NCBI GenBank assembly: GCA_045542335.1 | Contig: JAZQKV010000086.1 | Location: 69,348-133,347, forward strand | DNA length: 64,000 nt | Reading direction: 5' to 3' | Source: Eubacteriales bacterium | GTDB lineage: Bacteria > Bacillota > Clostridia > Oscillospirales > CAG-382 | In this document: one piece after another, positions 8,362-64,000 of the stretch | Position numbering within the stretch: position 1 is the stretch's first letter | Layout of the letters: every line of letters starts with the position of its first letter | Position numbers and translations under genes: made by a program | Notes under the pieces: model-generated | Database searches by the model: none | Seen by the model: only the letters and a program-made list of their open reading frames with translations | What the model was told of the DNA's origin: nothing

Positions 8362-9615
8362 TTACTGCTTCTTCAAATCCTTAAAAATAAATCTGAAAAC
8401 AAGGGAACAGACAACGCCTATGACGATCGCCACAACAAGGTCAAACACGACCGTTGCAACCATCGTTATGAGGAAGAGAAGAATCGCGCCGATTCTCTTG
8501 CCGCCGAACATCGCCTTGATTTCGTGCCACTCGTTCATTCTCCATGCCGTCACCATAAGCACGCCCGCAAGAGCCGCATTTGGAATGAGAGCCATTATAT
8601 CACCAAGAAGGAACATCGCCGCAATAAGCCAAAGGGCGTGGAAGATACCCGTAAGCCTTGTCTGTGCACCACTCTTTATGGCAACGCTTGTTCTCGCAAT
8701 CGCCGCTGTCGCAGGCACGCCGCCAAAGAAAGGAATAAGTATATTTCCTGCGCCCTGTGCAAGAAGCTCTATGTTTGCGTCAAAAGGCTCCTCCTTCATA
8801 CGGGATGCAGATGCTCCGCAAAGAAGGCTCTCAATCATGCCAAGTGCCGCAACGCTGAATGCAGGGGAAATGAGTGCAACCATTGTTTTTGGGTCAAGCT
8901 GTGCAAGTGAAAAACGCTGTTCAAGGAAAAGGGTCTTGGGGATTTCGCCGATTGTTGCGAACTTATCCGCACCTACGATTACGCAAACGATTGTCGCAAT
9001 AATAATACCCACAAGAGATGAAGGCACTTTTGCGTTCCACTTTTTGGGATATACAAGCATAACCACAACAACAAGAAGTCCTATGAGGACCGTGAAGATG
9101 TCGGGCGTAAATCCAAATTCGCCGTAAGAAATAAGCTTGTCAATTGCACTTTCGCCCTCGGAATGAGTACCGAAAAAGTTGTCGATCTGCCCCAGGGCAA
9201 TTATCACCGCAATACCAGAAGTAAAGCCTGTGATAACAGGAGCAGGGATAAAGGAAACAAGCTTTCCCACACGAAAGATTCCGCAAATAAGCAGAATAAC
9301 ACCCGCCATAAAGCAAACCGTAAACACGCCTTGAAGCAAATACTGTGCAACAATCGCTCCGAGTATTGCCGCCATAGCGCCTGTGGGACCGGAAATCTGG
9401 AATGAAGCTCCTGAAAATGCGCTTATTACAACGCCTGCCACAATTGCTGTAACAAGTCCTGCCGCCGCATCTGCTCCGCTTGCAACGCCAAAAGCAAGTG
9501 CAAGAGGAAGAGCCACCGCCGCAACTGTGAGTCCTGCAAGCAGATCTTTTATAAATTTCCCGCCATTGTAGCCGGAAAACTCACGCCTGAACATAGCCAC
9601 AAAGTTCTTTAACAT
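8362..9615 (-). CDS. SulP-family anion permease lacking STAS domain
   Basis: DLLAGLTVA.VALP.ALAF, ISGPTGAM, PVITGFTSGIA, ESLL, GGVPATAAIART; ends after last TM. Confidence 0.85.
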   Translation of the reverse strand: MLKNFVAMFRREFSGYNGGKFIKDLLAGLTVAAVALPLALAFGVASGADAAAGLVTAIVAGVVISAFSGASFQISGPTGAMAAILGAIVAQYLLQGVFTVCFMAGVILLICGIFRVGKLVSFIPAPVITGFTSGIAVIIALGQIDNFFGTHSEGESAIDKLISYGEFGFTPDIFTVLIGLLVVVVMLVYPKKWNAKVPSSLVGIIIATIVCVIVGADKFATIGEIPKTLFLEQRFSLAQLDPKTMVALISPAFSVAALGMIESLLCGASASRMKEEPFDANIELLAQGAGNILIPFFGGVPATAAIARTSVAIKSGAQTRLTGIFHALWLIAAMFLLGDIMALIPNAALAGVLMVTAWRMNEWHEIKAMFGGKRIGAILLFLITMVATVVFDLVVAIVIGVVCSLVFRFIFKDLKKQ

Positions 9616-9938
9616 ATTTAAGCCACTCCGTATAAAAATAGTGTCGGCAAATATTTTTTGCCGACAATTATTATACTACTTTATTCCACATTTGTCCATA
9701 TGGAAAAATCATGTATTTTTAGCTTTTTTTGCAATTTTTTTGTAGAAATTGTGCATTTTGCCGTTTTTTGCATGTATTGGCACAGTGTCACATCGTTCCC
9801 ACACAATCGCACAATCTTTCTCATGTCATATTTTCACACAATAAAAAAGGTAACAAATTGTTCTCCCGATAATGTTGCATTTTGCCTTTGACGACAGTAT
9901 AATAAAACCATAACCACTAAATGCGAAAGGAGCAAAAT

Positions 9939-10841
9939 ATGTCATCCCCATTTACAAGCGAGCTTGTCATTCCGCATGAGCTTGACAGAAAAAGCATAAA
10001 GGACATACTGTACGGTCATTTTGCCCTTTCGACAAATGCGGTAAAGGGACTTAAGTACAATGGTAAAATTCTGCTTGACGGAAAAGAAGTGACGGTACGT
10101 GAAAACGTTTCTGCGCATCAACATCTTACTCTTGTATTTCCTCAGAGCACGTCTGAAAGTATTGTTCCCGTAGACCTTCCCACCAAGGTGCTTTACGAGG
10201 ACGAGCATCTTCTTGCCGTCAACAAGCCTTTCGGTATGCCGACGCATCCGAGCCACGGTCACCGCACAGACACCCTCGCAAATGCGGTCATGTACAAATA
10301 CGGCGGAAACTTTGTGTTTCGTCCTATAACCCGCCTTGATATTGACACAACGGGTGTAGTTCTTATTGCGAAGAACGCCGTTGTGTGTCACAAGCTATGC
10401 TCTGCTCTTGCCGACAATGCAGACGAGGGGCTAATCAGAAAAACCTATCTTGCACTTTGCACCGCAGTCCCAAAAGAAAAAAGAGGAACAATTGATGCAC
10501 CAATCGGGCGACTTTTCGGAAGTGTGCTCAAGCGTTGTGTCAGGGAAGACGGTCAAAGGTCTGTGACAAACTACGAAGTACTTGAACAGAGTGAAGGGAG
10601 ATGTCTTGTGAAAGCAATGCCCTTAACAGGACGAACCCATCAGATTCGTGTCCACATGGCGTACATTGGCTGTCCGCTTGTGGGAGACTATCTTTACGGA
10701 ACTGAAATTGCAGGCACACGCACCATGCTTCATTGCGAAAGCGTTGAATTTTTGCACCCCATATCAAGACAAAATCTTTGTATAAAAGCTCCCATGCCGG
10801 AGGATATGTGTAGCATAATAAAGAATGACGGAGTAATCTGA
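9939..10841 (+). CDS. RluA/RluD-family pseudouridine synthase
   Basis: VNKP.GMP.HP, RLDIDTTG catalytic Asp, TGRTHQIRVH, GD.LYG, LHC; AAGGAG RBS. Confidence 0.92.
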   Translation: MSSPFTSELVIPHELDRKSIKDILYGHFALSTNAVKGLKYNGKILLDGKEVTVRENVSAHQHLTLVFPQSTSESIVPVDLPTKVLYEDEHLLAVNKPFGMPTHPSHGHRTDTLANAVMYKYGGNFVFRPITRLDIDTTGVVLIAKNAVVCHKLCSALADNADEGLIRKTYLALCTAVPKEKRGTIDAPIGRLFGSVLKRCVREDGQRSVTNYEVLEQSEGRCLVKAMPLTGRTHQIRVHMAYIGCPLVGDYLYGTEIAGTRTMLHCESVEFLHPISRQNLCIKAPMPEDMCSIIKNDGVI

Positions 10842-10851
10842 TTACCCCGTC
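10827..10851. terminator. Hairpin terminator overlapping RluA stop
   Basis: GACGGAGTAATC-T-GATTACCCCGTC. Confidence 0.55.
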
Positions 10852-10957
10852 GTTTCTGTTATATCCTTATTCCAATGCATTTGCCATCCGGACTACTTCA
10901 ATATTCCGGCACGCTGCCGCACTTCCGTTATTCTTTTGTTAAAAGCTTAAAAAGCAC

Positions 10958-41404: not shown

Positions 41405-43177
41405 TTATTCGTGATAGTCAATAACCTCATGAGGAACTGCCGCTTCTATCACATCGTAGAATCCCCAGAAGTTTTCGTCAAGATCCTTGAAAGGATTGCC
41501 CTCGTCTTCAACATATCTGTCAAGTCTTTCCTTGGAAGGAACTCTGTCAATTGCACGGTTAACAATCTTCACAGCTTCAGCTCTTGTGATGTCATTTTCA
41601 GGCTTGAATGTACCGTCGGTGTAACCGTCAACCATTCCTGCTGCCTTGAGAGCCATGATATATGCGTTCGCCCAGTGGTCTCCTGTATCGGGGAAGCTGC
41701 CATCTGCTGTAAGCTCAAGAGCAAGCATTCTGGAAATCATAACAGTGAATTCCGCACGGGTAATATACTCATTGGGTCTGAATGTACCATCGGTGTAACC
41801 GGTGATAATTCCGTTATCAGCACAGTATCCGACATATGCCGCATACCACTCGCCCTCCTTAACATCGGAAAGCTTGATCTCATATTCAGCCTTTGCATCA
41901 AAGTCTGTGGAAACCTTTGCAATAATTGCGGCTGCCTCAGATCTCTTGATGTTTGCCCCGGGCTTAACTGTTCCATCCTCGTAACCGCTGATGTAGTCAT
42001 AGTGGTAAGCCTTGTCTGCATCCTCAATGTCTGCAAACACGGGGATAAGCTTAACATCGCCGGTTATCTTGTAAGTGTCAAAGTTGATAAGTGTTTCGCC
42101 GTCAACTGTCCAACCAACAAGCTTCTTGCCCTCAGGAGGAGTGATTTCGGGAACATCCTTGGAGTTTATCTTGCTGTTTCTTTCAACTTCAACGGTAACC
42201 TTCTTCTTACCATCTTCAAACTCGCCGTCACCTGCGGTAAAATCAACATCATACTTTGTTGAACCGCCAACAACAACTGTCACACCGCTGCTGCTCTTCT
42301 TGGGAGTACCTGCAACCTGTGAGGGAACGCCTGACTCAGTGACATTGCCACCGCCGTCAACATTTACAGGAGTAATTGTTGCAACGTAGTCATCACCGTT
42401 CTTAAGTCCTGTCCACTTATACTTTCCGTCTTCCATGGGAACACGCTGTGTACCAACTTCTTCGATAGGGTTTCCGTCATCATCAACCTTTACAAGGTCA
42501 ATATCAACATATTCATAGTTGGGATCCTTTTCCCAGCCAATTGTAAGAGAACCGGAAGAAGCCTTTGTTGTTGTGGGAATAACTTCAAACGCTTCAATAG
42601 CAACGCCATCAACAAACTCGGAGTCTGCTGTCATAACTCTTGCAGGCTTGCCTACAAAATGAGCAAGCTCGGAAACGTCAGCCGCCTCTGCAAAAAGTGT
42701 GTGTGTTCTTTCCTCGGTCTCAACATGACCAAGAGTTGAAACATCGCCGTCTGCCTTGAGTGTATATGTAATTGTTGCAAGAAGAACAGCTTCTTCTGTG
42801 GCATCAACCTTTGTACCACTCTCACCATACCATGAGAATGCAATGGTTTCTCCGCCTGCAAGAACTGTTTCTGTTGCTTCTGCAACCTTCGCAACAACAA
42901 CTCCGTCTGCCGCTACAACAGTTTCAGCGAGCGTTGCCGCAGGCTCAAACTCAAGCGCTTCGTCAACAAGGTCAAGAGCAAGGTTTCCGGAAACTCCGAC
43001 CACACCTGTAAGATAAACTTCTGCGATAAGCTGCGTTGTGCCACCGATAGTCTTAACTTCGTGTGTTACATAATAGGGTTCATTTTCAGCCATTGCAGTT
43101 GTAAACAGCATACCGGAGCAAACCAGAATAAAGCTGAGAACAAGTGCAAGGATTCTCTGTGTCTTTTTCACTTTCAT
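41405..43177 (-). CDS. SLH-anchored protein: signal peptide, cohesin-like domain, FN3, InlB-B/Listeria-Bacteroides repeat, 3x SLH
   Basis: Signal peptide; SLH GY.DGT.KP...RAE x3; FN3 (LTIGW...GLKNG.DY); repeat F....G...P.IT..GK.LVGW; N-domain strand pattern like type II cohesin. Confidence 0.75.
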   Translation of the reverse strand: MKVKKTQRILALVLSFILVCSGMLFTTAMAENEPYYVTHEVKTIGGTTQLIAEVYLTGVVGVSGNLALDLVDEALEFEPAATLAETVVAADGVVVAKVAEATETVLAGGETIAFSWYGESGTKVDATEEAVLLATITYTLKADGDVSTLGHVETEERTHTLFAEAADVSELAHFVGKPARVMTADSEFVDGVAIEAFEVIPTTTKASSGSLTIGWEKDPNYEYVDIDLVKVDDDGNPIEEVGTQRVPMEDGKYKWTGLKNGDDYVATITPVNVDGGGNVTESGVPSQVAGTPKKSSSGVTVVVGGSTKYDVDFTAGDGEFEDGKKKVTVEVERNSKINSKDVPEITPPEGKKLVGWTVDGETLINFDTYKITGDVKLIPVFADIEDADKAYHYDYISGYEDGTVKPGANIKRSEAAAIIAKVSTDFDAKAEYEIKLSDVKEGEWYAAYVGYCADNGIITGYTDGTFRPNEYITRAEFTVMISRMLALELTADGSFPDTGDHWANAYIMALKAAGMVDGYTDGTFKPENDITRAEAVKIVNRAIDRVPSKERLDRYVEDEGNPFKDLDENFWGFYDVIEAAVPHEVIDYHE

Positions 43178-43250
43178 ACCTCCGTAAGAAAAAATGATTC
43201 CATGTGTCGAACAGATCCGCAAATAAAGACAATTCGACTTATACTATATC

Positions 43251-43415: not shown

Positions 43416-46400
43416 TTACTCTGCTTTGCGTCCAAAATTGCTCTTTACAAACGAGAGATCCATAACAGTTACCTCTCCGTCCTCATCAATATCAACCGCT
43501 TTAACGAATTCTTCGATTTCGCTGAGTTCTTTCGAGAAGCCTCTGATAATTCTGATAAAGTCATCAATATCAACAATGCCATCGCCACAAATGTCACCAT
43601 AATTTCCCTTGATATCACCGGCTACAAGGTCAAGTTCAAGATTATCAACAATCGTTCCGCCGATTTCGCTTGCAGAATCGTATGTCTTTATCTTCTTTGC
43701 AAGATAACCGTTCTTTTCAACAGAAACCGTGATTGCGCCCTCGGCTGTGATATCTGAAACATCAATGACATTTCCAACTTCAATGTAGTAGAGAGTCACT
43801 TCAACGCCGTCAACAGTTACTGTCTCAGACTTTGTTGCTGTGTTTTCACTCTCAATTGCAATACTCTTTACAAGAGTGCCGTCGGCAGTTCTGAATGTAA
43901 GGTATGCAGGGTTCTTTACTGCACTTTCTGTGGTTCTGTCAACATAAACCTTACCGCTTACCTTAACCTCATCCTCATTTGCCGTATATGCAATTTCATA
44001 AACATTGCCCTCTGCCGTAAGATCAGATGCGGGAATTGTTGCAACGCCGTCGATAACAGTGTATCTCTTGATTTCTGTGTCTGTGGTCTTATCCTTAAGG
44101 ACAACAGTTGAATATGTTGTTGTTACCTTAAAGCCGTCAAAGGTGAAATCTTCGCCGAGAGGATACGTCACGTTATTGTAAACCCATGTTGCGCTTGTGT
44201 CAACAATTGCTTCAACCTTACCGTCAGCAGATGAATATGCTACTATGTCTGCCGCATTTGCCGCAACTGTTGCGCTTGTTCCGTTGTTGAAGATAACAAC
44301 CTGCGTTGCAGTTGCGTTTGTGCCTCTTGCCTGAATGCCTTCGGTAATTGTACCGCCGTTCACTTCAAGAACTGCAACACCAAGCTGTGCGTTTGCACCG
44401 AGAGTGCCCGTGATGGTCTGCTTTGTATAATAACCGTCAGCATCGGGCTGCTGTGTTGCGCCGGAAGAAAGTTGTGACTGGAGATAAACTTTCTTTACTG
44501 TACCGCCGTTGATTATGCCGTGAGCATATCCGAATATGCTGTTGCGTCCGTAATCCTTAGTAGAGGCGTTATTTGCAATTACACCACCGAGAGCCATGTA
44601 ATTTGTTACATTTCCGCCGTCAACAATCAAGGTTGCAACGCCGTCAAAACGACCTGCATGAGTAATTCTGAAGTCGCTTGTATTGCCTTTAAGGATAACT
44701 GTCCTGCTTCCGCTTATTGCTTCAGCCACATTTACCGGATTGTTTTGGTTGTAATTTGCACCCGGTCCAACTACGCCTGCCGTGAAATTATTGCCAATGG
44801 TAATTGTGTTGGTAGATGGCTGCGCATCCTTGTAGTAATTTGAATGGAAAAGACGAATTGTTGAAATGCTCTTATTTATACAGTCATTATATGGAACAAG
44901 ACATTCCAAAAGCGTGCCTGTGCTTTCATTATAGTAAGCCTCGGCTTCGGTTTCGTAGTTTCTGGAGGAATTACACAGATATTCCACGCCATCAATGTTA
45001 AGTTTGCCTGTGCCGCCTATAACATTATCACCGATTGTATAATCGTAGTCCGTCGTGGGCAAAATCGGCTCCATGTTGTTTGCACCGATTGTCAACATCT
45101 TTATGTTATCAATAGTGGTATCTCCCTTGCGATAAGCCTTGAATCCTGTAACCACATAAATGGTTGAATTCTCATCAAGTCCCTTGATGGTTAAGTGTCC
45201 TGTATTTGTGGGGTGATACATTGTAACAGCATCAGTAACTATAAGCGTATAATCAGAACCGTCTTTTATCTTGGCAGATGCACTAACAATTGCGCATTTT
45301 GCGTTTTTCCATGCATATCCGTCGATTCCGGTCTTTACAACTGCATCGGCATCCTTTGTCAATGTTTCTGCCAAAGTATTTTTAATATTGTCCTTGGCAG
45401 TCTGAACAGAAGTAATAGTTACAGGGGTGAGAATTTCAAGCTTTGTTCCGAAAGGCTCCGACGGGTCATAACCGCCATCGGGAGTACCTGTCCAGTCGGA
45501 AATGTACCATACATTTGCATCCACATTCCACTGCGCCGTAAGTGTAACGTCTGCTGTCACACCGGCAATCTCATCGCCGGGCTGATAGGTTGTCTCTCCG
45601 TCGGACCAACCAAGGAACTCATACTTTGCCCCGTTGTTGAATGTGGGAGCTTCAGCAACTGTGATTGCCCCATTGTTTCCGCAGGTTGCGCTTTCGGGAA
45701 CTGTTGCATACTTATTTTCACCGTATGCATATGTTATTTCGTGTTCGATGAGATCATAAACAGCATAGAGTGTTGTTTCACCTGTTACTGTGTACTTTTC
45801 TCCGGTGTAAATCTCGCCGCCCTCGGTGAGAGACCAACCCTTGAACTCATTGATACCATCGGTAACTGTGGGTGTGGGAAGATCTGCAATAACAATATCA
45901 TTGCCCTTTTCAATGGTGATGGAATCAATCTCACTGCCGGCTGTGCCAACATTAAAGTTGACTGCAACATCCTTGTTCTTATAGGTTACAGAGCTTTCGC
46001 CTGTGCCGACTGTTGCCGCCGCAACAGTAACAGTTCCGTCAACTGTTTCGTATTCAACGCCGTCAATAACAACAAGCTCCTTGTCTGTTGTGAATACAAA
46101 GGAAGCAATTGTGTTGTCGTCTGCAAATACTGCGTCTGCACTACCGCCTGCTGCGGACTTGAGATAGTAGTCAATGTTTGCCGTTTCCACGGTATATGTA
46201 AGACCGTTGTTTATAATGAGAGCTGTGTCAAGAGTGTTGTATGTGGAGTTCTTTGCGGTAATCTTTGCAATTGCACCGCCGTTTACTATGAGAAGTGCCG
46301 AGCCGTTGATCTTACCGCTTGACTGTGCACCGACATACGCAACGCTGGTTACTCTACCACCGTTGATAACACCTCTTGCAGTACCTGTGTGAGAAGCATT

Positions 46401-49400
46401 TCCGCCGTGACCGCCTGTACCGAAGGTATGTACAGTCGCGTTGTCGAGAATGATATTTACGTCACCTGTAACCGCACAGGTATTGTAACCGGAAGCTCTC
46501 GTGTGTGCTATATTGAGTCCGGGGCTGTTGATTACAAGAGGCTTGCATTCGTTAAGAGTATATGTTCCACCACCATCTGAAAAATAGTGGATATAAAGAC
46601 CGGCAGAACGTCTTACCGTGGCACCTGTGTAGAGCTCTGTACCCGAAGTCCAGGAAGCAACAGTTGTTCCGTCTTCCTTATAGGTACAATACTGAACGTA
46701 AACCGCTGCAGGATAGTATTCAACAATATTGAAGTTGTCAAACACAACCTCCTGACCGTAGCTGCTGTAATATATCTCACCGTTGTTATTGGGAACGCCG
46801 GTAAGTTCGCCTGCCTCATACTTTGCTCTGTCGCCAAGGCGTATGGTTTTCACGCCAAGAACAACGTCTACATTCTTCCATGTGAGCTTTGCCGCATCGG
46901 AAATCTTGGAATGGTTGATATGAGTGTGCATATAGAATCTTGCACCGTCCTCAGCAGTTATGGTGACATCACCATAGCCGGCAAGAGAAGGACCGGTATA
47001 GACTGTATGCGACACATCCCCTACCATAACAATATAGTTTTCATTTGTCTTATAGGTGTCGGGGAAAGCAGTTGCAAGCTTGTCTGTTGCTTCCTTGATG
47101 GTGTTTGTGATACCAAAAGGATTTTCGGGAGTGAGACCGTTGCCTGTGCCACTGCTTGAAATGTAGAGAACATTTGCATCCTCGGGATATGTTTCCCAGA
47201 TACGCACCTCAACCTCAGAGCCTGTGTTTTCGCCGTCGGTATATCTCATGAGATAGAGACCTGCCGAAAGGCCTGTGATTTCGGTTATGCCTGCATCGTA
47301 GGATGTCCAATCGTCTGCATCATGTTTCTTGATTTCAAGAGCTTTTGATGTTGCTTCAGCAAAGGTGATCTTTGCGTCTTTGCCAAATGCCGTTGTTGCC
47401 TTTGTGACAGTGAAGTTTTCGGGAGCATCGGCAAGTACAAATTCAAACTCGTAGTCTGCAACGTTGTCAACCGAAAGAATTGCAACGTTTGTACCTGTGC
47501 CACCCTCGCCCGCCTGAGTGAGAGTGTAGCCGTAGTATCCCTCGGGAACGGTAACATTGATTGTGGGATATTCAACATTCGTTGAAAGAAGCTCAACACC
47601 GCTTATGTCGATTTCTGCCTTACCGTCCTTGATAGCAACGGGGATTTCATACCTGTAAACCGTGGGGTCAAAGTCAAATACCTGCTCAAGAGCCGCATTT
47701 TCTTCGTCTGTTGCGCCCTCGATTTCAATTGTCGCATTGATTATGGGCTCGCCTGTTATTTCGTCAACAATCGGCTCACCGCTTGCTGTGTCAACAAGTG
47801 TAATGGGGCTTACTGCGGAAATTGTCTTGTCAAGTCCCTCGGACTGTCCCCAAAGCAGGAAGAAACGAATGTCAAAAGGTGTGTTGTTATCTGTGTGGAT
47901 AATTCTGATGGTATGTTCGCCCTCGGAAAGTCCCTTTGCAAGATAATAAATCTTGTTGTTGGGGTAGGAACGGTAAATGTTTGCCGTCTGAATGGGACCG
48001 CCGTCAACGGAGTAAGCAATATTGGTACCGTTCTTGCTGTTCTGTGTACCATAGGACCATGTCCACAAACCGAGATTCTTTGAGTTGAACTTAAAGCTTA
48101 TTACGTCGCCCTCTTTGGAAGAACGGAAATACTTGCCATTGTTATCAACAACAGCATAGTTTCCAAAGCCTGCGGAATTGCCCACCGCTTCGGGAGCAAG
48201 CATGTATGCATCGGAGAGAAGCTCGCCCTTGTTGTTCTCTGTACAGTAAAGTGTCTCGGGAAGAACCTTTGCTGCGTATTCGGTTGCAGTAGGTGTGTAG
48301 CTTGTGGGAAGCTGTTCTTCGAGATAATCGATGATTGATGCAGCATAGTGTGCATAACCTGTATCATTGGGGTGAACGCCGTCAATAGTTCCACCGGAAC
48401 GCTCGAAATACTTCTTCCATGCTGCGTCTGTGGTATTAGGCCACTTGTTGCCGTTTTCTGCGTAAATTGTCTTTGCGAGCTCATGTCCTATATAAAGAAT
48501 AGGAAGATTGTAGTGCTCGGAGAGCTTTGTATAAGGTACACCATAGCTCGGAACACCGCCTGTTGAAGGGATATCCTGCTTCATTATACCGTTGTCACCG
48601 ACAACAAGGAGTACAATGTTTATCTTGGGATTTACCTTATAAAGCTTCTGGATTATAGATTCAATGTAAACATACTGCTCATCCTTGCCGTAAATGCCGT
48701 CATAGCTGTCGTTTACACACATTTCGATAAATACGATGTCGGGGCAATCGTCCTTGATAAGGTCACGGTCTGCACGGAAAATACCAAAGATAGCACCTGT
48801 ACCGCCCCAACCTGCGTTGCGTTCAACAACTGTAGCAGACGGGAATGTGGACTTGAACCAATCTCTTGTTATACCTCTCCAGGAGGTGTTGTTAGCACTT
48901 GTCGCACCTGTACCTGCGGTAACAGAGCCGCCAAAGTATCCGATAACGATTTCCTTGTCAGCCTGGAGCTTGTAAAGAGTATTTATAAGAGCCTCTGGCT
49001 TGTTCTGGTCAACGTTAAAGTTGATTGTGTAAAGAACGGTTTCGCCGTCCATGATGTATGCCTTATAGCCTGTGCCCTCAACTGTTTCGTATGTAACCTC
49101 AACTGTTTCGGGAGCAGTGCCGGAGTTGCCAAATGTAACAACAGGCTGAGCCGCACCGTAATTAAGAGCTATATTGTACTCTGTGGTATCGGCATCAAAG
49201 TCCTCGATTTCAATACCGTCGTAGTAAACCGCTGTCACGCCGAATACTGTAGTACCGCCGGTAAAGTTTACCGTTACAACAGCCTCTCCGTTGTCCTTGA
49301 TTGTGGAAACAGCATTGCCGTCGCCGTCAAGCTTGCCGTTTGTGATAACGACGTTGTCTGTATTACCCTTTGCCACAGCTGTAAGCACGGGGATAGTGCT

Positions 49401-51713
49401 TGCACCTGCAAGGTCGTAGTCATACTCTGTCACGTCGCCTATGGAAACGCCGTCAAGAAGAACATCCGTAACGGTGAAATCTCCCTCAAAATCGGAAACG
49501 TGAAGTTTTGCATCGCCGAGACTTCCGAAAAGGCCGACGTAGCCTATTTCAAATGTATCCTCAAGATGGTTTGCAACGTCATCGGAGGTGAGGTAAACCT
49601 GCCACGCTCCCATTGCACCCTTGGCTGAATAATCGTAGTAAATAACATTCCACTGATTATTTACAAGGGTGGGAGAATCAAGTGCCGTAACAAATGCACT
49701 TTCTCCTGAAACAGCATACCAACGCAAGGAGGGAAGCTGAGGAGCAGCCTTTGCCTTGGGACGTATAACAAGCTTCATAACCTTGTAATCGGTTGTCTTA
49801 TAGTCTTCTACAATACTGCCACCCGGGCAAACCTCACCTGTAGCCCACATGTCAGAGTTTTCAGCGTTGTCAAAATACTGATTACCGGGGTTGACAAGAA
49901 CATACTCTCTGCTGAAATCGTCAACCTTATTTTCTGTAAGACATCTGTGATTTTCAATGCCCTTGTAGCCTATTGACAGTTCAATAGGCTCAACCTCTGT
50001 CGTTGTCGCACCGCCTGTGAAGTTTACGGTATACAACACTTCACCGTCTTTCTCGATTGTTGCCTCTGCAGTGCCGTCTTCAAAGCTGAACTCTGTGTAC
50101 TCAACGGAAAGACCGTCGGTATTACCCTTACCTGCAAGGGTAACTGTGGGAACAACGCTTGCACCTGCAAGGTCGTATTCATACTGGGTAGTAGCGACAT
50201 CAAAGCCGGAGATTGCTGTTCCGTCTACCTTGATGCCTGTGATGCTGAGGTCACCCTCAAAGTCGGAAACGTGAGCCTTTGCATCGGCATAGTTTCCGAA
50301 AAGTGCAAGGTAACCGAAGTCTATTCTTGTATCCTCGGTGAGAGTACCTATATTGCCGGAGAATACAGTACCCATGTAGTATAAAAGACCTGCTTCAAGC
50401 ACGCCGCCTGTTTTGAAAAGGTCAGTCATGTCGTAGTATGCAACAGTCCAATCGCCTACAGTCTTTGTTTCCTTGGCATAGACAGCTGCACCGCCAAAAT
50501 TCTTGTTCATGGGTCTGAAAACAAACGCCTGAGTGTCAGTGGTCTTATAAACAGCCTTGAGAGCCTTGTACTGTGTCTGCTCTGCAGAAAGGTTTCCTCC
50601 GGGACCTACTGTCTTGGTGGCATCGGAAGAAAAGTTAGGTGTAATGCGGTGAACGGTTCTTCCGAAAATGTCGTTTTCATCAACACCGTTGTAGTATACG
50701 GCACAGTTGTTGGAAATATCACTATATGTATACTTGATGGGAAGAGGAGCTATATCGGTAAGCATTGCACCGCCTGTAAAGTTTACAGTATAAAGAACCT
50801 CGCCATCCTGCTCAATTGTAGCAATTGCAGTACCTGTCGTTGTGTCAACGTTTGTACATTCAACGGTAATACCGGATGCATCACCGCTACCTGTCAAAGC
50901 AACTGCAGGGACAGTATCCGCTTCGCCAAGATCGTAAGTATATTCGGTTGTGGAAGCGGAAAAGCCGGAAATGGCTGTACCGCCAACGGTGATACCTGTT
51001 ATGTTAAGCTCACCCTCGAAATCGGAAACATGAGCCTTTGCATCTTCAAGGTCGCCGAAATATCCTGCATAACCTATCTCAAAGGTATCACTTGTATGAT
51101 TCTGAGAAGCTTCCGATGCGTAAACATTGAACATTACGCCGTGCACACCATACTGATAATACGTTTTAAGAGCCTCTGTTGAAGTGTAAGAGTAGTATGC
51201 GGTAACCCACTTGTCTGCCTCATGAGACTTGCCCTCGTCAAACGACGCAGAGATAGTCTTTGCGGAAGTGTTCATTTCGCCGGATTCTTTATTTGCAAAA
51301 ACAGACATGGTGGGAGTAGTATCACTGGGTGACTTGTAAACAACCTTGATTACGTTGTAGTCTGCAGTCGCCTGTGTAAAGGAAGCGGGAGATACAGAAC
51401 TGCTGGGCTTGGTGGAAGCATCCGCTTCAATGATCGTGATTGTTCTTCCCAAAACATCCTTTCCCGTGGAAGCCTTTGCATGCTGGTCGTTAGCATTGGC
51501 GTGGTTGATTGAAAAATTGATGGGGGTAAGCTCTGTTGCCAGAACTTCAACCTCGGCATCTTCCTCTTTGGCTTCTTCCGTTTCGGGTTCTTCAACAACT
51601 TCTTGAGTTTCCTCAACTGTGTCCACCACTTCGGCAGCATATGCGAAAGTGTTGAAGCATGAGAAAACCATAAGCATTGTCAAAAGAATACTGAGCAATC
51701 TTCTTGTTTTCAT
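43416..51713 (-). CDS. Giant (2765 aa) secreted modular protein: 3x (CBM-like + cadherin-like) repeats, SGNH/GDSL hydrolase, two beta-helix-like regions, InlB-B repeats, C-terminal X-module + dockerin
   Basis: Signal peptide; GGSVTAG/NAGWGG/CVND/DGVHPN SGNH blocks; repeated AK.HVSDFEG...ITGI.V.G...F...T.EY; FKGWS/FLGWS repeats; duplicated EF-hand-like DGIVDIDD / DIDEDGEVTVMD...NFG. Confidence 0.8.
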   Translation of the reverse strand: MKTRRLLSILLTMLMVFSCFNTFAYAAEVVDTVEETQEVVEEPETEEAKEEDAEVEVLATELTPINFSINHANANDQHAKASTGKDVLGRTITIIEADASTKPSSSVSPASFTQATADYNVIKVVYKSPSDTTPTMSVFANKESGEMNTSAKTISASFDEGKSHEADKWVTAYYSYTSTEALKTYYQYGVHGVMFNVYASEASQNHTSDTFEIGYAGYFGDLEDAKAHVSDFEGELNITGITVGGTAISGFSASTTEYTYDLGEADTVPAVALTGSGDASGITVECTNVDTTTGTAIATIEQDGEVLYTVNFTGGAMLTDIAPLPIKYTYSDISNNCAVYYNGVDENDIFGRTVHRITPNFSSDATKTVGPGGNLSAEQTQYKALKAVYKTTDTQAFVFRPMNKNFGGAAVYAKETKTVGDWTVAYYDMTDLFKTGGVLEAGLLYYMGTVFSGNIGTLTEDTRIDFGYLALFGNYADAKAHVSDFEGDLSITGIKVDGTAISGFDVATTQYEYDLAGASVVPTVTLAGKGNTDGLSVEYTEFSFEDGTAEATIEKDGEVLYTVNFTGGATTTEVEPIELSIGYKGIENHRCLTENKVDDFSREYVLVNPGNQYFDNAENSDMWATGEVCPGGSIVEDYKTTDYKVMKLVIRPKAKAAPQLPSLRWYAVSGESAFVTALDSPTLVNNQWNVIYYDYSAKGAMGAWQVYLTSDDVANHLEDTFEIGYVGLFGSLGDAKLHVSDFEGDFTVTDVLLDGVSIGDVTEYDYDLAGASTIPVLTAVAKGNTDNVVITNGKLDGDGNAVSTIKDNGEAVVTVNFTGGTTVFGVTAVYYDGIEIEDFDADTTEYNIALNYGAAQPVVTFGNSGTAPETVEVTYETVEGTGYKAYIMDGETVLYTINFNVDQNKPEALINTLYKLQADKEIVIGYFGGSVTAGTGATSANNTSWRGITRDWFKSTFPSATVVERNAGWGGTGAIFGIFRADRDLIKDDCPDIVFIEMCVNDSYDGIYGKDEQYVYIESIIQKLYKVNPKINIVLLVVGDNGIMKQDIPSTGGVPSYGVPYTKLSEHYNLPILYIGHELAKTIYAENGNKWPNTTDAAWKKYFERSGGTIDGVHPNDTGYAHYAASIIDYLEEQLPTSYTPTATEYAAKVLPETLYCTENNKGELLSDAYMLAPEAVGNSAGFGNYAVVDNNGKYFRSSKEGDVISFKFNSKNLGLWTWSYGTQNSKNGTNIAYSVDGGPIQTANIYRSYPNNKIYYLAKGLSEGEHTIRIIHTDNNTPFDIRFFLLWGQSEGLDKTISAVSPITLVDTASGEPIVDEITGEPIINATIEIEGATDEENAALEQVFDFDPTVYRYEIPVAIKDGKAEIDISGVELLSTNVEYPTINVTVPEGYYGYTLTQAGEGGTGTNVAILSVDNVADYEFEFVLADAPENFTVTKATTAFGKDAKITFAEATSKALEIKKHDADDWTSYDAGITEITGLSAGLYLMRYTDGENTGSEVEVRIWETYPEDANVLYISSSGTGNGLTPENPFGITNTIKEATDKLATAFPDTYKTNENYIVMVGDVSHTVYTGPSLAGYGDVTITAEDGARFYMHTHINHSKISDAAKLTWKNVDVVLGVKTIRLGDRAKYEAGELTGVPNNNGEIYYSSYGQEVVFDNFNIVEYYPAAVYVQYCTYKEDGTTVASWTSGTELYTGATVRRSAGLYIHYFSDGGGTYTLNECKPLVINSPGLNIAHTRASGYNTCAVTGDVNIILDNATVHTFGTGGHGGNASHTGTARGVINGGRVTSVAYVGAQSSGKINGSALLIVNGGAIAKITAKNSTYNTLDTALIINNGLTYTVETANIDYYLKSAAGGSADAVFADDNTIASFVFTTDKELVVIDGVEYETVDGTVTVAAATVGTGESSVTYKNKDVAVNFNVGTAGSEIDSITIEKGNDIVIADLPTPTVTDGINEFKGWSLTEGGEIYTGEKYTVTGETTLYAVYDLIEHEITYAYGENKYATVPESATCGNNGAITVAEAPTFNNGAKYEFLGWSDGETTYQPGDEIAGVTADVTLTAQWNVDANVWYISDWTGTPDGGYDPSEPFGTKLEILTPVTITSVQTAKDNIKNTLAETLTKDADAVVKTGIDGYAWKNAKCAIVSASAKIKDGSDYTLIVTDAVTMYHPTNTGHLTIKGLDENSTIYVVTGFKAYRKGDTTIDNIKMLTIGANNMEPILPTTDYDYTIGDNVIGGTGKLNIDGVEYLCNSSRNYETEAEAYYNESTGTLLECLVPYNDCINKSISTIRLFHSNYYKDAQPSTNTITIGNNFTAGVVGPGANYNQNNPVNVAEAISGSRTVILKGNTSDFRITHAGRFDGVATLIVDGGNVTNYMALGGVIANNASTKDYGRNSIFGYAHGIINGGTVKKVYLQSQLSSGATQQPDADGYYTKQTITGTLGANAQLGVAVLEVNGGTITEGIQARGTNATATQVVIFNNGTSATVAANAADIVAYSSADGKVEAIVDTSATWVYNNVTYPLGEDFTFDGFKVTTTYSTVVLKDKTTDTEIKRYTVIDGVATIPASDLTAEGNVYEIAYTANEDEVKVSGKVYVDRTTESAVKNPAYLTFRTADGTLVKSIAIESENTATKSETVTVDGVEVTLYYIEVGNVIDVSDITAEGAITVSVEKNGYLAKKIKTYDSASEIGGTIVDNLELDLVAGDIKGNYGDICGDGIVDIDDFIRIIRGFSKELSEIEEFVKAVDIDEDGEVTVMDLSFVKSNFGRKAE

Positions 51714-60643: not shown

Positions 60644-61562
60644 AAGCTTGCCCCCAAAGTGAATTTGGTTTTAAGTTGTAAAGTCGTTTGTCCATGAAAT
60701 GTACTCTTCCATTTTTAACAGCATCAAGCTTTTGCCATGCAGGGTTTTCGTCAAAAAGGTCTTTTATGCTCTTTTTTGTTGCCTCGGCATTGTCACCTAC
60801 CTGTACCACGAAAATGTGTTGCGGATTTTGAGCGATAATGCTTTCAACGCTCAATGTTTCAAGAAGCGAAGAATCGCTGTCAGCAATGTTGATGCAACCG
60901 AGATCTGCAAGCATTTCGCCAAGAACATTGTCATGGCTGTTCTTTGCCCGGACGCTTGCCGCAGAGGCGCGCAGAAAAAGCACTTTGGGAGGATTTTTAT
61001 GATATTGGGCATTTTTGCTTTGCTCAATTGCGCTGTCAACGGTCTTTTTTACATCAAGTCCGTTTTTCTCATACAGGTCAGGTCTTGAGGTTATGTCGGT
61101 GCAGATTTTAAGCATACGCAGGTAATCATCAAAGCCCGAAACATCAAAGAAAGCAACCGTAATATTTGCCGCTTCAAGGGTGGGAAGCCAATCAAGATGT
61201 TGCTTTGTATTGGTGCTTGCAATGACAAAATGAGGCTTTGATGCAAGCAGAATTTCAAGACTCAGGTTTTTTGTAGCGCCGAGATTTGCGGCATTTGGAA
61301 TCTGCTCTCCGAGCCCGAAGTCGTCCCAGGCATCATCTGCCGTGGCGCAAAGGTTTGGTCCTCCCCCCGACAGCACCCACACATCCGCAAAGCTTCCGAG
61401 AAGAGCAGCGGTGCGTTCGAAAGATGGGATGCTGACCTGCCTTCCGAGGTCATCGGTGAAGGTGTACGACGGATTTTTTACCGTTGTACGGGAGGTACAG
61501 CCACAGAAAAGTGTAGCGGAAAGTATGGTCAACGCAAAGGCGTTAAAGAGAAGTCTTTTCAT
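60612..61562 (-). CDS. ABC substrate-binding lipoprotein (Peripla_BP_2; BtuF/IsdE/FhuD-like)
   Basis: Lipobox LFCGC, FTDDLGR.V, LE.LL...P, E.II.QNP, W..L.AVKNGRV. Confidence 0.88.
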   Translation of the reverse strand: MKRLLFNAFALTILSATLFCGCTSRTTVKNPSYTFTDDLGRQVSIPSFERTAALLGSFADVWVLSGGGPNLCATADDAWDDFGLGEQIPNAANLGATKNLSLEILLASKPHFVIASTNTKQHLDWLPTLEAANITVAFFDVSGFDDYLRMLKICTDITSRPDLYEKNGLDVKKTVDSAIEQSKNAQYHKNPPKVLFLRASAASVRAKNSHDNVLGEMLADLGCINIADSDSSLLETLSVESIIAQNPQHIFVVQVGDNAEATKKSIKDLFDENPAWQKLDAVKNGRVHFMDKRLYNLKPNSLWGQAYEQLEKILEQ

Positions 61563-61581
61563 TGTGATTCAGCTCCTGTTT

Positions 61582-61740
61582 TCACTTTTTTCCATATTGC
61601 ATAGGTGTCATGCCGTACTTTGCCTTAAAACGTCCGTTAAAGCAAGAGGCACTGCAAAAGCCTGTTTGTTAAGCAACATTCGAAACCAATACTTCGGGAC
61701 GGCGTAAGACTTTTGGACAATTTATTTTAGCATATATTGA
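61582..61740 (-). pseudogene. Relic AraC HTH fragment with in-frame stop
   Basis: Minus frame reads AKINCPKVLRRPEVLVSNVA*QTGFCSASCFNGRFKAKYGMTPMQYGKK*. Confidence 0.65.
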
Positions 61741-61968: not shown

Positions 61969-61997
61969 TTGACAAAACGGTACAGATATGTTATAAT
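61969..61997 (+). promoter_or_regulatory. Consensus extended SigA promoter for tRNA-Ser locus
   Basis: TTGACA-17 bp-TATAAT with TGn extension. Confidence 0.85.
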
Positions 61998-62030
61998 ACC
62001 ACCGTTGCGTGAGTTGCCGTAACGATATAC

Positions 62031-62070
62031 GGAGGTGTATCGAAGTGGTCATAACGGTCTCGACTCGAAA
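62031..62070 (+). pseudogene. tRNA-Ser(CGA) 5' half, copy A
   Basis: GGAGGTGTATCGAAGTGGTCATAACGGTCTCGACTCGAAA; similarity stops at end of anticodon loop. Confidence 0.8.
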
Positions 62071-62232
62071 GCTTCTACGTCTAATGGAACTCATATAGCC
62101 CGAAACCCTTGATTTTATGCGGTTTCTGTAATTTGATTTTTAACTTATTTTTGCTTGTTTTGCCCATGTTTTTGCCTTAAATATCATTTTGCCAAATTTG
62201 TCAGGGCTGACATATAAAACAATTTCATATCT

Positions 62233-62275
62233 GGAGAAGTATCGAAGTGGTCATAACGGGGCGCACTCGAAATCA
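62233..62275 (+). pseudogene. tRNA-Ser(CGA) 5' half, copy B
   Basis: GGAGAAGTATCGAAGTGGTCATAACGGGGCGCACTCGAAATCA; no variable arm or T-arm follows. Confidence 0.8.
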
Positions 62276-62310
62276 TGTTGTTTTCTCCAAAAACTGAATA
62301 TTTTTTACAC

Positions 62311-62399
62311 GGAGAGGTATCGAAGTGGTCATAACGGGGCTGACTCGAAATCAGTTTGCGAGCAATCGCACGCGGGTTCGAATCCCGCCCTCTCCGCCA
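62311..62399 (+). tRNA. tRNA-Ser(CGA)
   Basis: Acceptor GGAGAGG/CCTCTCC, anticodon arm GCTGA-CTCGAAA-TCAGT, long variable arm TGCGA-GCAA-TCGCA, GGTTCGAATCC T-loop, G discriminator + CCA. Confidence 0.95.
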
Positions 62400-62434
62400 A
62401 AAACCCTTGAAAACACTACGTTTTCAAGGGTTTT
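62400..62434 (+). terminator. Palindrome after tRNA (terminator and/or att-associated site)
   Basis: AAAACCCTTGAAAAC-ACTAC-GTTTTCAAGGGTTTT. Confidence 0.7.
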
Positions 62435-62447
62435 CACTTTGTCTTGG

Positions 62448-62563
62448 TGGTGCCCGCTTTTTGTGAATGGTGCCCTTGGTGCCCTAATTTGTGGTGCCCT
62501 CGGTGTTTTGCTCTATTCAGTTTATTCATCAAAAATGAATGCTGTGGTGCCCTTATGGTGCCC
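62448..62563 (+). repeat. Six direct repeats TGGTGCCC (probable integrase arm-type sites)
   Basis: Copies at 62448, 62468, 62477, 62492, 62545 and 62556, between tRNA and integrase 3' end. Confidence 0.7.
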
Positions 62564-62726: not shown

Positions 62727-63920
62727 TCAAGGACGGATTTTTTTACGTTCAAGGCGCACGTCAACGTACTGTGCCGTTACTGCTTCAAGGTTGGTTGAGA
62801 TACCGAGCGACATTCCGATACCTTTTAACGTATGCCCCAAGATCTCACCGACAGTATAAAAGTCTCCCGTGAGTTGGTGCATATTGGTCGCCGCCGTATG
62901 CCGCAAATCGTGAAAACGAATATGCGGCATTTCAAGGTGCCGTACAAGCTGACCGAAATTGTTTGAAACAACGTCGCGCCGATAAGGTGCGCCGTCGGGT
63001 TTTGAGATCACAAGATCATTGTCATAGTACGGTGTCCCTGCGGCGGATGTAAGCTCCTTCCTCCTTTCTTGCAAATTTTTCGCTTGCTCAAAATATGGGC
63101 GCGTCAGATCGGTGATCGGCAATATTCTATCGTTGGATTTTGTCGGTGCCATTTCCGCAACCTCTTTTGTCCCTGCGGGGAGATTAAACGGTAATTGCTC
63201 GACAACGCCGAACGTGCCTTTTTCCAAATCTACGTTCTGCCAACGCAAGCCGAGAATTTCACTCATACGCAAGCCGTACATACCCGCAAGCATAACGGGC
63301 ATTTCCCACTCCGTACCGATAACCTTGCTCATAAAATCTTGCATTTGCTCTATGGTGTACGGGTCGGGTGTCTTGCCCTGCTTGCCAAACTTCGTGATAA
63401 CATCACGGGCGGCATTGTGTTCTATGTAGTGATATTTTCTTGCGTGTTCCAATGCGACGCTCATAATTCTTTGAGCATATCTGACGCTACTGTTTGACAA
63501 TCCGCTATCGAACATTTTTTGAAACATATTGTCAAGCATAGCGGGCGAAAGCTGATTGAGTTGAACATGTCCGATGTTCGGTACAATGTGGTTTTTGATA
63601 TAGCCCTTGTAGCTCGCAAACGTGCTTGGGCGCAAGTTTGCTTTGCCGTGTATCTCTACCCATTCCTCCATATAATCCTTGACCGTCTGCTTGCCTTGTG
63701 CGGAAGCAACGGGGGTATAGACGGGATTTGCGAGCTTGGTTTTCATTTCAGCTTCGTGCTGTGTAGCTTCTTTTTTGGTCGCAAAGCCCTTTTTGGAATA
63801 AGTCTTTTTGCCTTCGGGCGAATTGTATTTGATATTAACGTCGTACACGGTGCCTGGCTTACCCGTCAGAACACCGTTACTATCACGTTTATTTTGTACT
63901 TGTCTTGATGATACCGCCAT
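62727..63920 (-). CDS. Tyrosine recombinase/integrase (arm-binding + SAM-like + catalytic domains)
   Basis: KKGF.TKKEA arm domain, LRPST..SY, GLR.SEILGL.W, KS, RFHDLRHT, LGH, T..Y. Confidence 0.92.
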   Translation of the reverse strand: MAVSSRQVQNKRDSNGVLTGKPGTVYDVNIKYNSPEGKKTYSKKGFATKKEATQHEAEMKTKLANPVYTPVASAQGKQTVKDYMEEWVEIHGKANLRPSTFASYKGYIKNHIVPNIGHVQLNQLSPAMLDNMFQKMFDSGLSNSSVRYAQRIMSVALEHARKYHYIEHNAARDVITKFGKQGKTPDPYTIEQMQDFMSKVIGTEWEMPVMLAGMYGLRMSEILGLRWQNVDLEKGTFGVVEQLPFNLPAGTKEVAEMAPTKSNDRILPITDLTRPYFEQAKNLQERRKELTSAAGTPYYDNDLVISKPDGAPYRRDVVSNNFGQLVRHLEMPHIRFHDLRHTAATNMHQLTGDFYTVGEILGHTLKGIGMSLGISTNLEAVTAQYVDVRLERKKIRP

Positions 63921-63923
63921 AGC

Positions 63924-63998
63924 TTAACCCCCTTGTGTAGCCGGGGATTTAGCCGCCGTCTTTGCTCTATGGTACCAATCCCATATTGCAGAATCGGC
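63924..63998 (-). CDS. C-terminal fragment of small gene upstream of integrase (possibly excisionase/HTH)
   Basis: Frame ADSAIWDWYHRAKTAAKSPATQGG* ends 3 nt before integrase ATG. Confidence 0.4.
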   Translation of the reverse strand, partial: ADSAIWDWYHRAKTAAKSPATQGG

Positions 63999-64000
63999 TA

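Follow-up and report, generated by a model that had tools for sequence, protein, structure and literature searches.

The window analysed here is a 64,000-nucleotide (nt) stretch of an Eubacteriales bacterium genome (GenBank:GCA_045542335.1, contig JAZQKV010000086.1, positions 69,348 to 133,347 of the forward strand). Near its right end, two 5′ parts (halves) of a transfer RNA (tRNA) gene, tRNA-Ser(CGA), stand in a row ahead of an intact copy of that gene, which is followed by a gene for a tyrosine integrase. The array opens with a sigma-70 promoter (TTGACA-17 nt-TATAAT with a TG extension; + strand, 61969–61997), which matched the consensus at 12 of 12 positions in a promoter scan; it is situated between a transporter operon and the first half and is read as the resident promoter of the original tRNA-Ser(CGA) gene. 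Half A (+, 62031–62070) covers the tRNA from its acceptor strand through the anticodon loop, and its identity to full tRNA genes stops with the loop sequence CTCGAAA (core 1, +, 62064–62070). Then comes spacer a′ of 162 nt (+, 62071–62232), containing a hairpin (+, about 62101–62126), three TTTTGCC repeats (+, 62158–62193) and, ahead of the second half, a weaker promoter-like site (TTGCCA-18 nt-TATAAA, 62189–62218) that was recognized by eye and not listed by the promoter scan. Half B (+, 62233–62273) breaks after CTCGAAAT, which consists of its anticodon loop (62266–62272) plus one base and forms core 2 (+, 62266–62273). Spacer b′, 37 nt long (+, 62274–62310), separates core 2 from the intact tRNA-Ser(CGA) (+, 62311–62399), which was identified by ARAGORN and by Rfam (RF00005, 54.8 bits), has both stems self-pairing and has its CCA encoded.

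Immediately downstream, an intrinsic terminator of the tRNA with a stem of 15 base pairs (bp) (+, 62400–62434; terminator scan) is followed by six direct GGTGCCC repeats (+, 62449–62563), which are putative arm-type binding sites for the integrase. GGTGCCC occurs eight times in the 64-kb window, and six of the occurrences, all on the + strand, fall within these 115 nt. The tyrosine integrase, of 397 amino acids (aa), is encoded on the − strand (62727–63920) and contains the Pfam domains Arm-DNA-bind_4, Phage_int_SAM_3 and Phage_integrase. Next to it, the last 24 codons of an excisionase-like gene (−, 63924–64000) run off the window; their translation resembles the C-terminus of a 79-aa open reading frame (ORF) upstream of the integrase gene at another locus (L010, see below), and that ORF has a weak match to HTH_17 (E = 8.8e-5, below the Pfam cut-off). 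A further contig, L089 (contig coordinates from 64001), was tried as the continuation of the window, with a further tRNA upstream of the integrase, and rejected, its first 130 nt being the end of a + strand gene and not the excisionase-like gene found after the integrase in L010 and L019.

The two halves and the intact gene share a 21-mer from the region of the D-arm, which is present exactly three times in the window (at 62037, 62239 and 62317, all on the + strand) and had no match in any of 100 shuffles; only the third copy (62317) falls in a complete tRNA. The T-arm motif occurs once, and therefore 3′ halves are absent within the window. Similarity of the halves to full genes ends after CTCGAAA or CTCGAAAT, and what comes next is spacer, not a 3′ half; the sequence after the anticodon loop has no tRNA character in either case, and only the side of a left attachment site (attL) is seen. 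A sequence-only reading of the window had described one consensus promoter ahead of the halves and the full tRNA, two 5′ halves broken at the anticodon loop ahead of a single intact gene, and differences among the three in the acceptor and anticodon-stem 5′ strands, all of which the promoter scan, the 21-mer count and sequence comparison bore out. Its coordinates for half A stand as well, but half B, which it had carried on to 62275, really ends at 62273, the two extra bases matching the intact gene by chance.

A survey of tRNA-Ser(CGA) loci for recurrence, proposed in that reading, showed that the arrangement is not unique. Scanning of a genome collection with the 21-mer gave at least 120 loci, 80 of them with 2-kb flanks; loci and contigs are labelled with L-numbers in the following. 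The 120 listed loci and the window made up 121 sources, in which full genes were called with ARAGORN and 5′ parts with a loose pattern. With h standing for a broken half, F for a full gene and ? for a 5′ end truncated where the sequence stops, 86 sources had the pattern F, 16 had hF, five had hhF (the window, L022, L045, L098 and L100), one had hh and then the contig end, four had h alone (each with no more than 206 nt downstream), two had h? and five had ?, while nothing was detected in two. At least one half was found in 28 of the 121 sources, and all 34 halves ended at the anticodon loop. The distance from a half to the next 5′ end could be taken 29 times and was either 77–78 nt (5 cases) or 168–204 nt (24 cases). 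A full tRNA-Ser(CGA) came after the half or halves in the 21 sources in which the next gene was complete (16 hF and 5 hhF). Outside the window, 27 of the 120 listed, independently assembled loci had the architecture with its break at the identical nucleotide, among them loci of isolate genomes (L049, L062 and L111), and because of this recurrence of an identical architecture and break, misassembly appears unlikely.

These counts of halves are lower bounds, and the 21-mer used as search motif biases the sample toward intact D-arms. A check of the upstream region that does not depend on the motif, made in the 99 sources with at least 260 nt upstream, gained four loci, of which L002 and L071 had decayed halves and L059 and L081 had a core after non-tRNA DNA. 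It also added a third half in L029 and a truncated piece in L098; the upstream matches in L018, L067, L072 and L117 look like chance and were set aside. In L098 (oriented positions 295–785), two units of half plus spacer, of 162 and 160 nt, were noticed as near-identical tandem copies before the full tRNA, which could reflect either unequal recombination or two integrations, one after the other, of a single element type.

Comparison with the genes sampled indicates where the halves come from. Half B matches the 5′ part of the full tRNA-Ser(CGA) genes of L074 and L106 without a difference over its 41 nt, and the 3′ parts of these genes complement its stems; judged by this match, half B is a real allele and not a decayed copy of the neighbouring gene. 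Half A has no counterpart as close among the 107 full genes sampled, all of which differ from it at 3 nt or more; its acceptor strand is found in the full tRNAs of L003, L078 and L096, whereas L044, L088 and L115 have its anticodon-stem strand. The suggestion that the halves look like different tRNA alleles is supported by both sets of matches. As a group, the halves are not conserved in sequence as a family and mirror the tRNA allele that was hit, and some have decayed, namely those of L023 (with no tRNA nearby), L002 and L071.

The spacers recur in other genomes together with what follows them. Spacer a′ is 91% identical across 162 nt to positions 2035–2196 of L021. There, a host 5′ half precedes it and a complete tRNA-Ser(CGA) comes after it, with further TTTGCC-type repeats and the gene for a 392-aa integrase beyond, and the left flank is the end of an unrelated gene. 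The junction of half A recurs in L021 and L109. Homologues of spacer b′ (37–38 nt) were found in L010, L019, L044 and L088 with the junction of the half B type, and in all five short-spacer cases the half-to-tRNA distance is 77–78 nt. The right-hand module of the window (tRNA, terminator, GGTGCC repeats, integrase and the 79-aa ORF) has 72–73% nt identity over 1.6 kb to L010 and L019, where it is located after host halves and has a terminator-like homologous hairpin at the equal position; the GGTGCCC motif adjoins the integrases of L010, L019 and L121. Despite differing in sequence, the long spacers follow one plan, with a hairpin about 30–57 nt past the core, a type-specific pair of direct repeats (8–10 nt), a −10-like element and then the tRNA, a plan that looks like the integrase-proximal arm of a lambda-like attP, the attachment site of the element. 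From these comparisons, spacer, tRNA, arm repeats and integrase are shown to behave as one transferable module that is found beside unrelated host flanks.

The integrases fell into two clades. Clade I comprises those of the window, L010 and L019, with 80–99% aa identity (80% between the window and L010 or L019), joined at 66–67% by that of L121; clade II comprises those of L005, L017, L021, L027, L029, L059 and L124, with mutual identities of 39–75%. Identity between the clades is about 25%, and the two clades correspond to the two spacing classes. By the same correspondence, the window would retain a relic of a clade-II-type module, namely a′ plus B, together with a clade-I module whose integrase gene is still in place. 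Association of the halves with integrases was examined in the 52 loci in which a full tRNA is followed by 1300 nt or more of sequence. On the strand opposite to the tRNA, an integrase was its immediate downstream neighbour in six of the 11 half-bearing loci (L005, L010, L017, L019, L021 and L029) versus three of the 41 without a detected half (Fisher p = 0.0014). As for these three, L027 begins inside a spacer, the contig start cutting off the position at which a half is expected, L059 has spacers and a half that differs in its D-arm, and L046 has only a partial integrase.

Use of the L021 and L017 integrases as queries against a phage collection led to three more contigs, L123, L124 and L126. 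In L124 (GenBank:MT836946.1), the core GACTCGAAAT comes after non-tRNA DNA and is followed by a paired-repeat spacer, tRNA-Ser(CGA) and an integrase; on one side are genes for ParB, ParA and two HTH_17 proteins, on the other an HTH_17 excisionase-like gene, DUF6551 and a MazF-like gene, and no recognizable phage structural gene was found in its 8.2 kb. This arrangement fits a free or tandem element with the putative order far arm, core, near arm, tRNA, integrase. The stacks of L123 and L126, each of two halves and a full tRNA accompanied by an integrase, have D-arms of a very different sequence, and therefore the phenomenon reaches beyond the 21-mer used as search motif. For the integrase of the window, the phage collection held one close match, L121 (GenBank:MT836268.1; 66%), which has the same GGTGCCC arm motif and no tRNA anywhere in its 11.4-kb contig (integrase region 9380–10880). 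Since L121 has the arm motif without a tRNA, the tRNA seems to have joined the arm only within the branch of clade I that targets tRNA genes. With the DNA of the window region as query, tRNA genes were the only matches in the phage collection, and the plasmid collection contained nothing closer than about 30% identity.

Taken together, these results make it very probable that the array is a stack of attL sites, left when tyrosine-integrase elements inserted at least twice in the anticodon loop of tRNA-Ser(CGA). We infer the strand exchange and the order of events as follows. An element would share with its target a core of about 7–8 bp (CTCGAAA, sometimes followed by T) and recombine with it in the anticodon loop; because the shared core is only about this long, the tRNA would not be rebuilt at the junction. 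The lost gene would be replaced by a complete tRNA-Ser(CGA) carried in the integrase-side arm of attP, the order on the element being core, spacer, tRNA, terminator, arm repeats, integrase and excisionase. Upon integration, the host promoter and the 5′ half would stay on the left, with the tRNA of the element 77–78 or about 170–200 nt downstream of the half, and the host 3′ half would go to the far end of the incoming element. The imported tRNA would then be the next target, to be split by the next element with the addition of another 5′ half. Halves would pile up because the tRNA lies inside attP, so that each integration makes a fresh target, and they would be 5′ rather than 3′ fragments because these elements do not rebuild the tRNA at the junction. 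The sequence-only reading had noted that integrases crossing over in the anticodon loop usually leave 3′ fragments, which holds for classical elements but not here, where 5′ halves accumulate. Of the origins that it had offered for the array, serial integrations that each supply a complete tRNA gain support from the co-transfer of the module, the constant break, the enrichment of integrases and the attP-like junction of L124.

Applied to the window, half A would be the resident gene and the host side of the attL of an older, L021-like (type 1) element. Spacer a′ and half B would be the visible remainder of that element, half B being its imported tRNA, later split by a type 2 element and thereby becoming the host side of the attL of this second element. 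The type 2 element, the latest, would comprise spacer b′, the intact tRNA, the GGTGCCC repeats, the integrase and the excisionase-like gene, and would continue past 64000. An alternative order is possible, in which an already nested element arrived in one step. Spacer b′ has no convincing promoter of its own by eye, and transcription of the intact tRNA probably starts, at least in part, at the upstream promoters and runs through the halves, which as host side of attL should still be usable for excision.

Several observations weigh against this interpretation. The older type 1 element, whose body was not seen, may be only a remnant. Most of the listed loci are from metagenome-assembled genomes. 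A scan with the T-arm motif for 3′ halves, expected at the right attachment site (attR), found none outside full tRNAs in the window and in all sampled locus sequence, which covered flanks shorter than the elements. Free attP sites of the two element types of the window were absent from the phage and plasmid collections searched. Five of the 11 half-bearing loci (L022, L043, L045, L049 and L062) have other genes, and no integrase, within about 1.3–2 kb downstream; either these elements decay or some units persist without an integrase, and because these loci keep stack and tRNA with no integrase nearby, they suggest that an imported tRNA can outlive its element. Finally, non-tRNA DNA lies to the left of a core in L059 and L081. 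In L059 (oriented, about 250–500), the order is a half with an unlike D-arm, a spacer, a stretch of about 50 nt of non-tRNA DNA that takes the place of the expected next half and ends in the core GCTCGAAAT, a second spacer, the full tRNA and the integrase; the junctions of L059 and L081 may be hybrids between tandem elements. As a separate observation, the only matches of the 3′-half scan were three near-identical hairpin repeats with a T-loop-like loop in L012 (468–484, 1037–1053 and 1908–1924), which are unrelated.

It seems rather unlikely that the units of core, attP arm and tRNA are more than passive records. Three ways in which they might be so were considered: 1) promoter capture, in which a short-spacer tRNA, 37–38 nt behind the core, would use the promoter of the gene just split; 2) replacement of the host tRNA, in which mobile elements would permanently swap the tRNA-Ser(CGA) allele of their hosts in gut Clostridia, as suggested by the five of 11 half-bearing loci without a nearby integrase; and 3) hitch-hiking, in which integrase-less cassettes of attP and tRNA would be moved in trans. 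If replacement or the cassette route were true, tRNA stem alleles would be horizontally mobile.

Among explanations other than stacked integrations, the best surviving, for which we see only a slim chance, is that the halves are kept as tRNA-half RNAs (decoys of anticodon nucleases, regulators or decoy attachment sites), besides or instead of being relics. Half A does stand behind a perfect promoter, the halves retain an intact D-arm, and because the short-spacer type is without a convincing promoter of its own they are probably transcribed within the tRNA precursor. However, the intact D-arms are partly due to selection of the sample by an exact 21-mer, the 306-nt leader folds no better than shuffles (z = 0.37), and no Rfam family was found for halves or spacers at a permissive threshold. 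A maintained RNA would also be hard to reconcile with half sequences that mirror the allele hit and are not conserved as a family, or with the decayed halves mentioned above, and the anatomy is fully explained without an RNA function. The maintained, co-transcribed set of tRNA-half RNAs envisaged in the sequence-only reading thus has nothing specific in its favour.

It is very improbable that the halves are scars of classical islands with a displaced 5′ tRNA fragment, the bodies of which were deleted leaving 162 and 37 nt. Islands with displaced 5′ tRNA-gene (tDNA) fragments are known, 159 of 3919 being counted as such in the part of the Islander report available (PMC4383910), and the five half-bearing loci lacking a nearby integrase would suit lost bodies. 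Independent deletions, however, would not yield 29 of 29 spacings of 77–78 or 168–204 nt. The integrase and the arm repeats are found downstream of the full tRNA, not between half and tRNA; the spacers hold paired direct repeats like intact attP arms; and spacer, tRNA and integrase travel together between genomes. An undeleted classical island with a displaced 5′ fragment was rejected likewise, since only 162 and 37 nt lie between the copies and all 29 spacings are at most 204 nt.

Less credible still is a purely local origin, by tandem duplication of the 5′ part of the resident gene and subsequent decay without any mobile element. Unequal recombination could make the near-identical tandem units of L098 (162 and 160 nt), but the window spacers are mutually unrelated, at 162 versus 37 nt, the stem differences match functional alleles (for half B at all 41 nt, in L074 and L106), and each spacer type recurs by unrelated host genes, next to an integrase of the matching clade. 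A split, permuted or intron-containing tRNA gene was dismissed, there being one T-arm in the window, no 3′ half outside full tRNAs in any of the sampled locus sequence and no Rfam match in the spacers.

With stacked attL junctions as the preferred interpretation, the array is a variant of a recently described mode of integration that destroys a tRNA gene and supplies another. This tRNA-dependent lysogeny has been shown experimentally in actinobacteriophages (Fionnbharth, LeBron, Gaia and others; Guerrero-Bustamante and Hatfull, mBio 2024, PMC10865867, to which the following comparisons refer as far as the available part of its text goes). In both cases a lambda-like tyrosine integrase with an arm-binding domain is encoded beside the attachment region, and the bacterial site (attB) lies in a host tRNA gene, there commonly in the anticodon loop and here represented by half A after the chromosomal promoter (PMC10865867). 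The core is short (about 8–17 bp in the phages) and the tRNA is not rebuilt, which here is seen at attL only; a cognate tRNA is on the element, here as a complete tRNA-Ser(CGA) between core and integrase (PMC10865867). The window integrase is about 26–27% identical over 88% of its length to the integrases of Boilgate and Yoshi, which are placed in the tRNA-dependent family in that paper, where integration of a second copy into the element's own tRNA gene is also suggested (PMC10865867).

The differences are several. The hosts here are Clostridia and the target is tRNA-Ser(CGA), and two integrase clades, only about 25% identical, use one core, unlike in the actinobacteriophages. Natural stacks of two, possibly three, 5′ halves also set these loci apart from the phages, as does the position of the tRNA, which in Fionnbharth overlaps an unrelated gene (PMC10865867, available part) and here lies inside the attP arm, 37–38 or about 130–165 nt from the core. 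Whereas the actinobacteriophages are temperate phages, what is visible here is an integrase and an excisionase-like gene in the window, and ParA and ParB in the relative L124. Closer to the present hosts, prophage Lj965 of Lactobacillus johnsonii (Bacillota) reportedly does not rebuild the tRNA and encodes the cognate one, as cited in PMC10865867, where it is mentioned as a possible example from beyond the Actinobacteria; the likeness is by description only, and no stack of halves is mentioned in the available part of that text. A similar situation is described for some rhizobial prophages in the portion available of a further paper (PMC12429752).

With classical tRNA-gene islands, as portrayed in the available part of the Islander report (PMC4383910), the loci share tyrosine integrases, crossover in the anticodon loop, reuse of one tRNA gene and fragments that mark the ends. 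Such islands restore the tRNA at the junction and have the displaced fragment, usually a 3′ one, one whole island away (PMC4383910). Here, by contrast, the junction restores no gene, the element brings in a complete one, and the 5′ halves stand 77–204 nt apart. Classical tRNA-gene islands and tandem arrays are said to have been treated by Williams in 2002. Streptococcus pyogenes phage T12 reportedly crosses over in the anticodon loop of a tRNA-Ser reading UCG, and is said to carry the 3′ part, so that the gene stays intact and no 5′ halves arise. In the literature, with most subscription journals outside the search, no description of half stacks in Clostridia was found.

The occurrence in the window and in 27 of the 120 listed loci suggests that tRNA-destroying integration at tRNA-Ser(CGA) is common in gut and rumen Clostridia, and this integration strategy would be used by two distantly related integrase clades. 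Because a tRNA inside attP would regenerate the target in place, a stack of 5′ halves would preserve the history of successive invasions, legible in the sequence itself. If an imported tRNA outlives its element, it would provide a route for horizontal replacement of tRNA alleles. For genome annotation, the halves may be listed as pseudogenes by tRNA annotation. The filters of Islander include a minimum length of 2 kb and rejection of matches inside full tRNA genes (PMC4383910, available part), and by our reading of these described filters half-stack loci would be rejected; island finders built on the pairing of a tRNA gene with a fragment far away would, on the same reading, miss these elements.

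To the left of the array, the chromosomal genes were assigned by Pfam. The transporter operon, on the − strand and ending at 61562, comprises genes for Peripla_BP_2, FecCD and an ABC ATPase, and genes for MatE, AraC and UvrB lie further left. Between this operon and the tRNA promoter there is a remnant with an in-frame stop (−, 61576–61704), which we take to resemble the C-terminal helix-turn-helix end of an AraC-type regulator. On the strand opposite to the tRNA and its terminator (−, 62347–62440), sub-threshold Rfam matches to two plastid 3′ untranslated region (3′UTR) families were noticed, most likely artefacts of a tRNA-like sequence next to a hairpin. Elsewhere in the window, a 605-aa protein with three S-layer homology domains is encoded on the − strand (41405–43222), adjoined by a 2765-aa ORF on the same strand (43416–51713).

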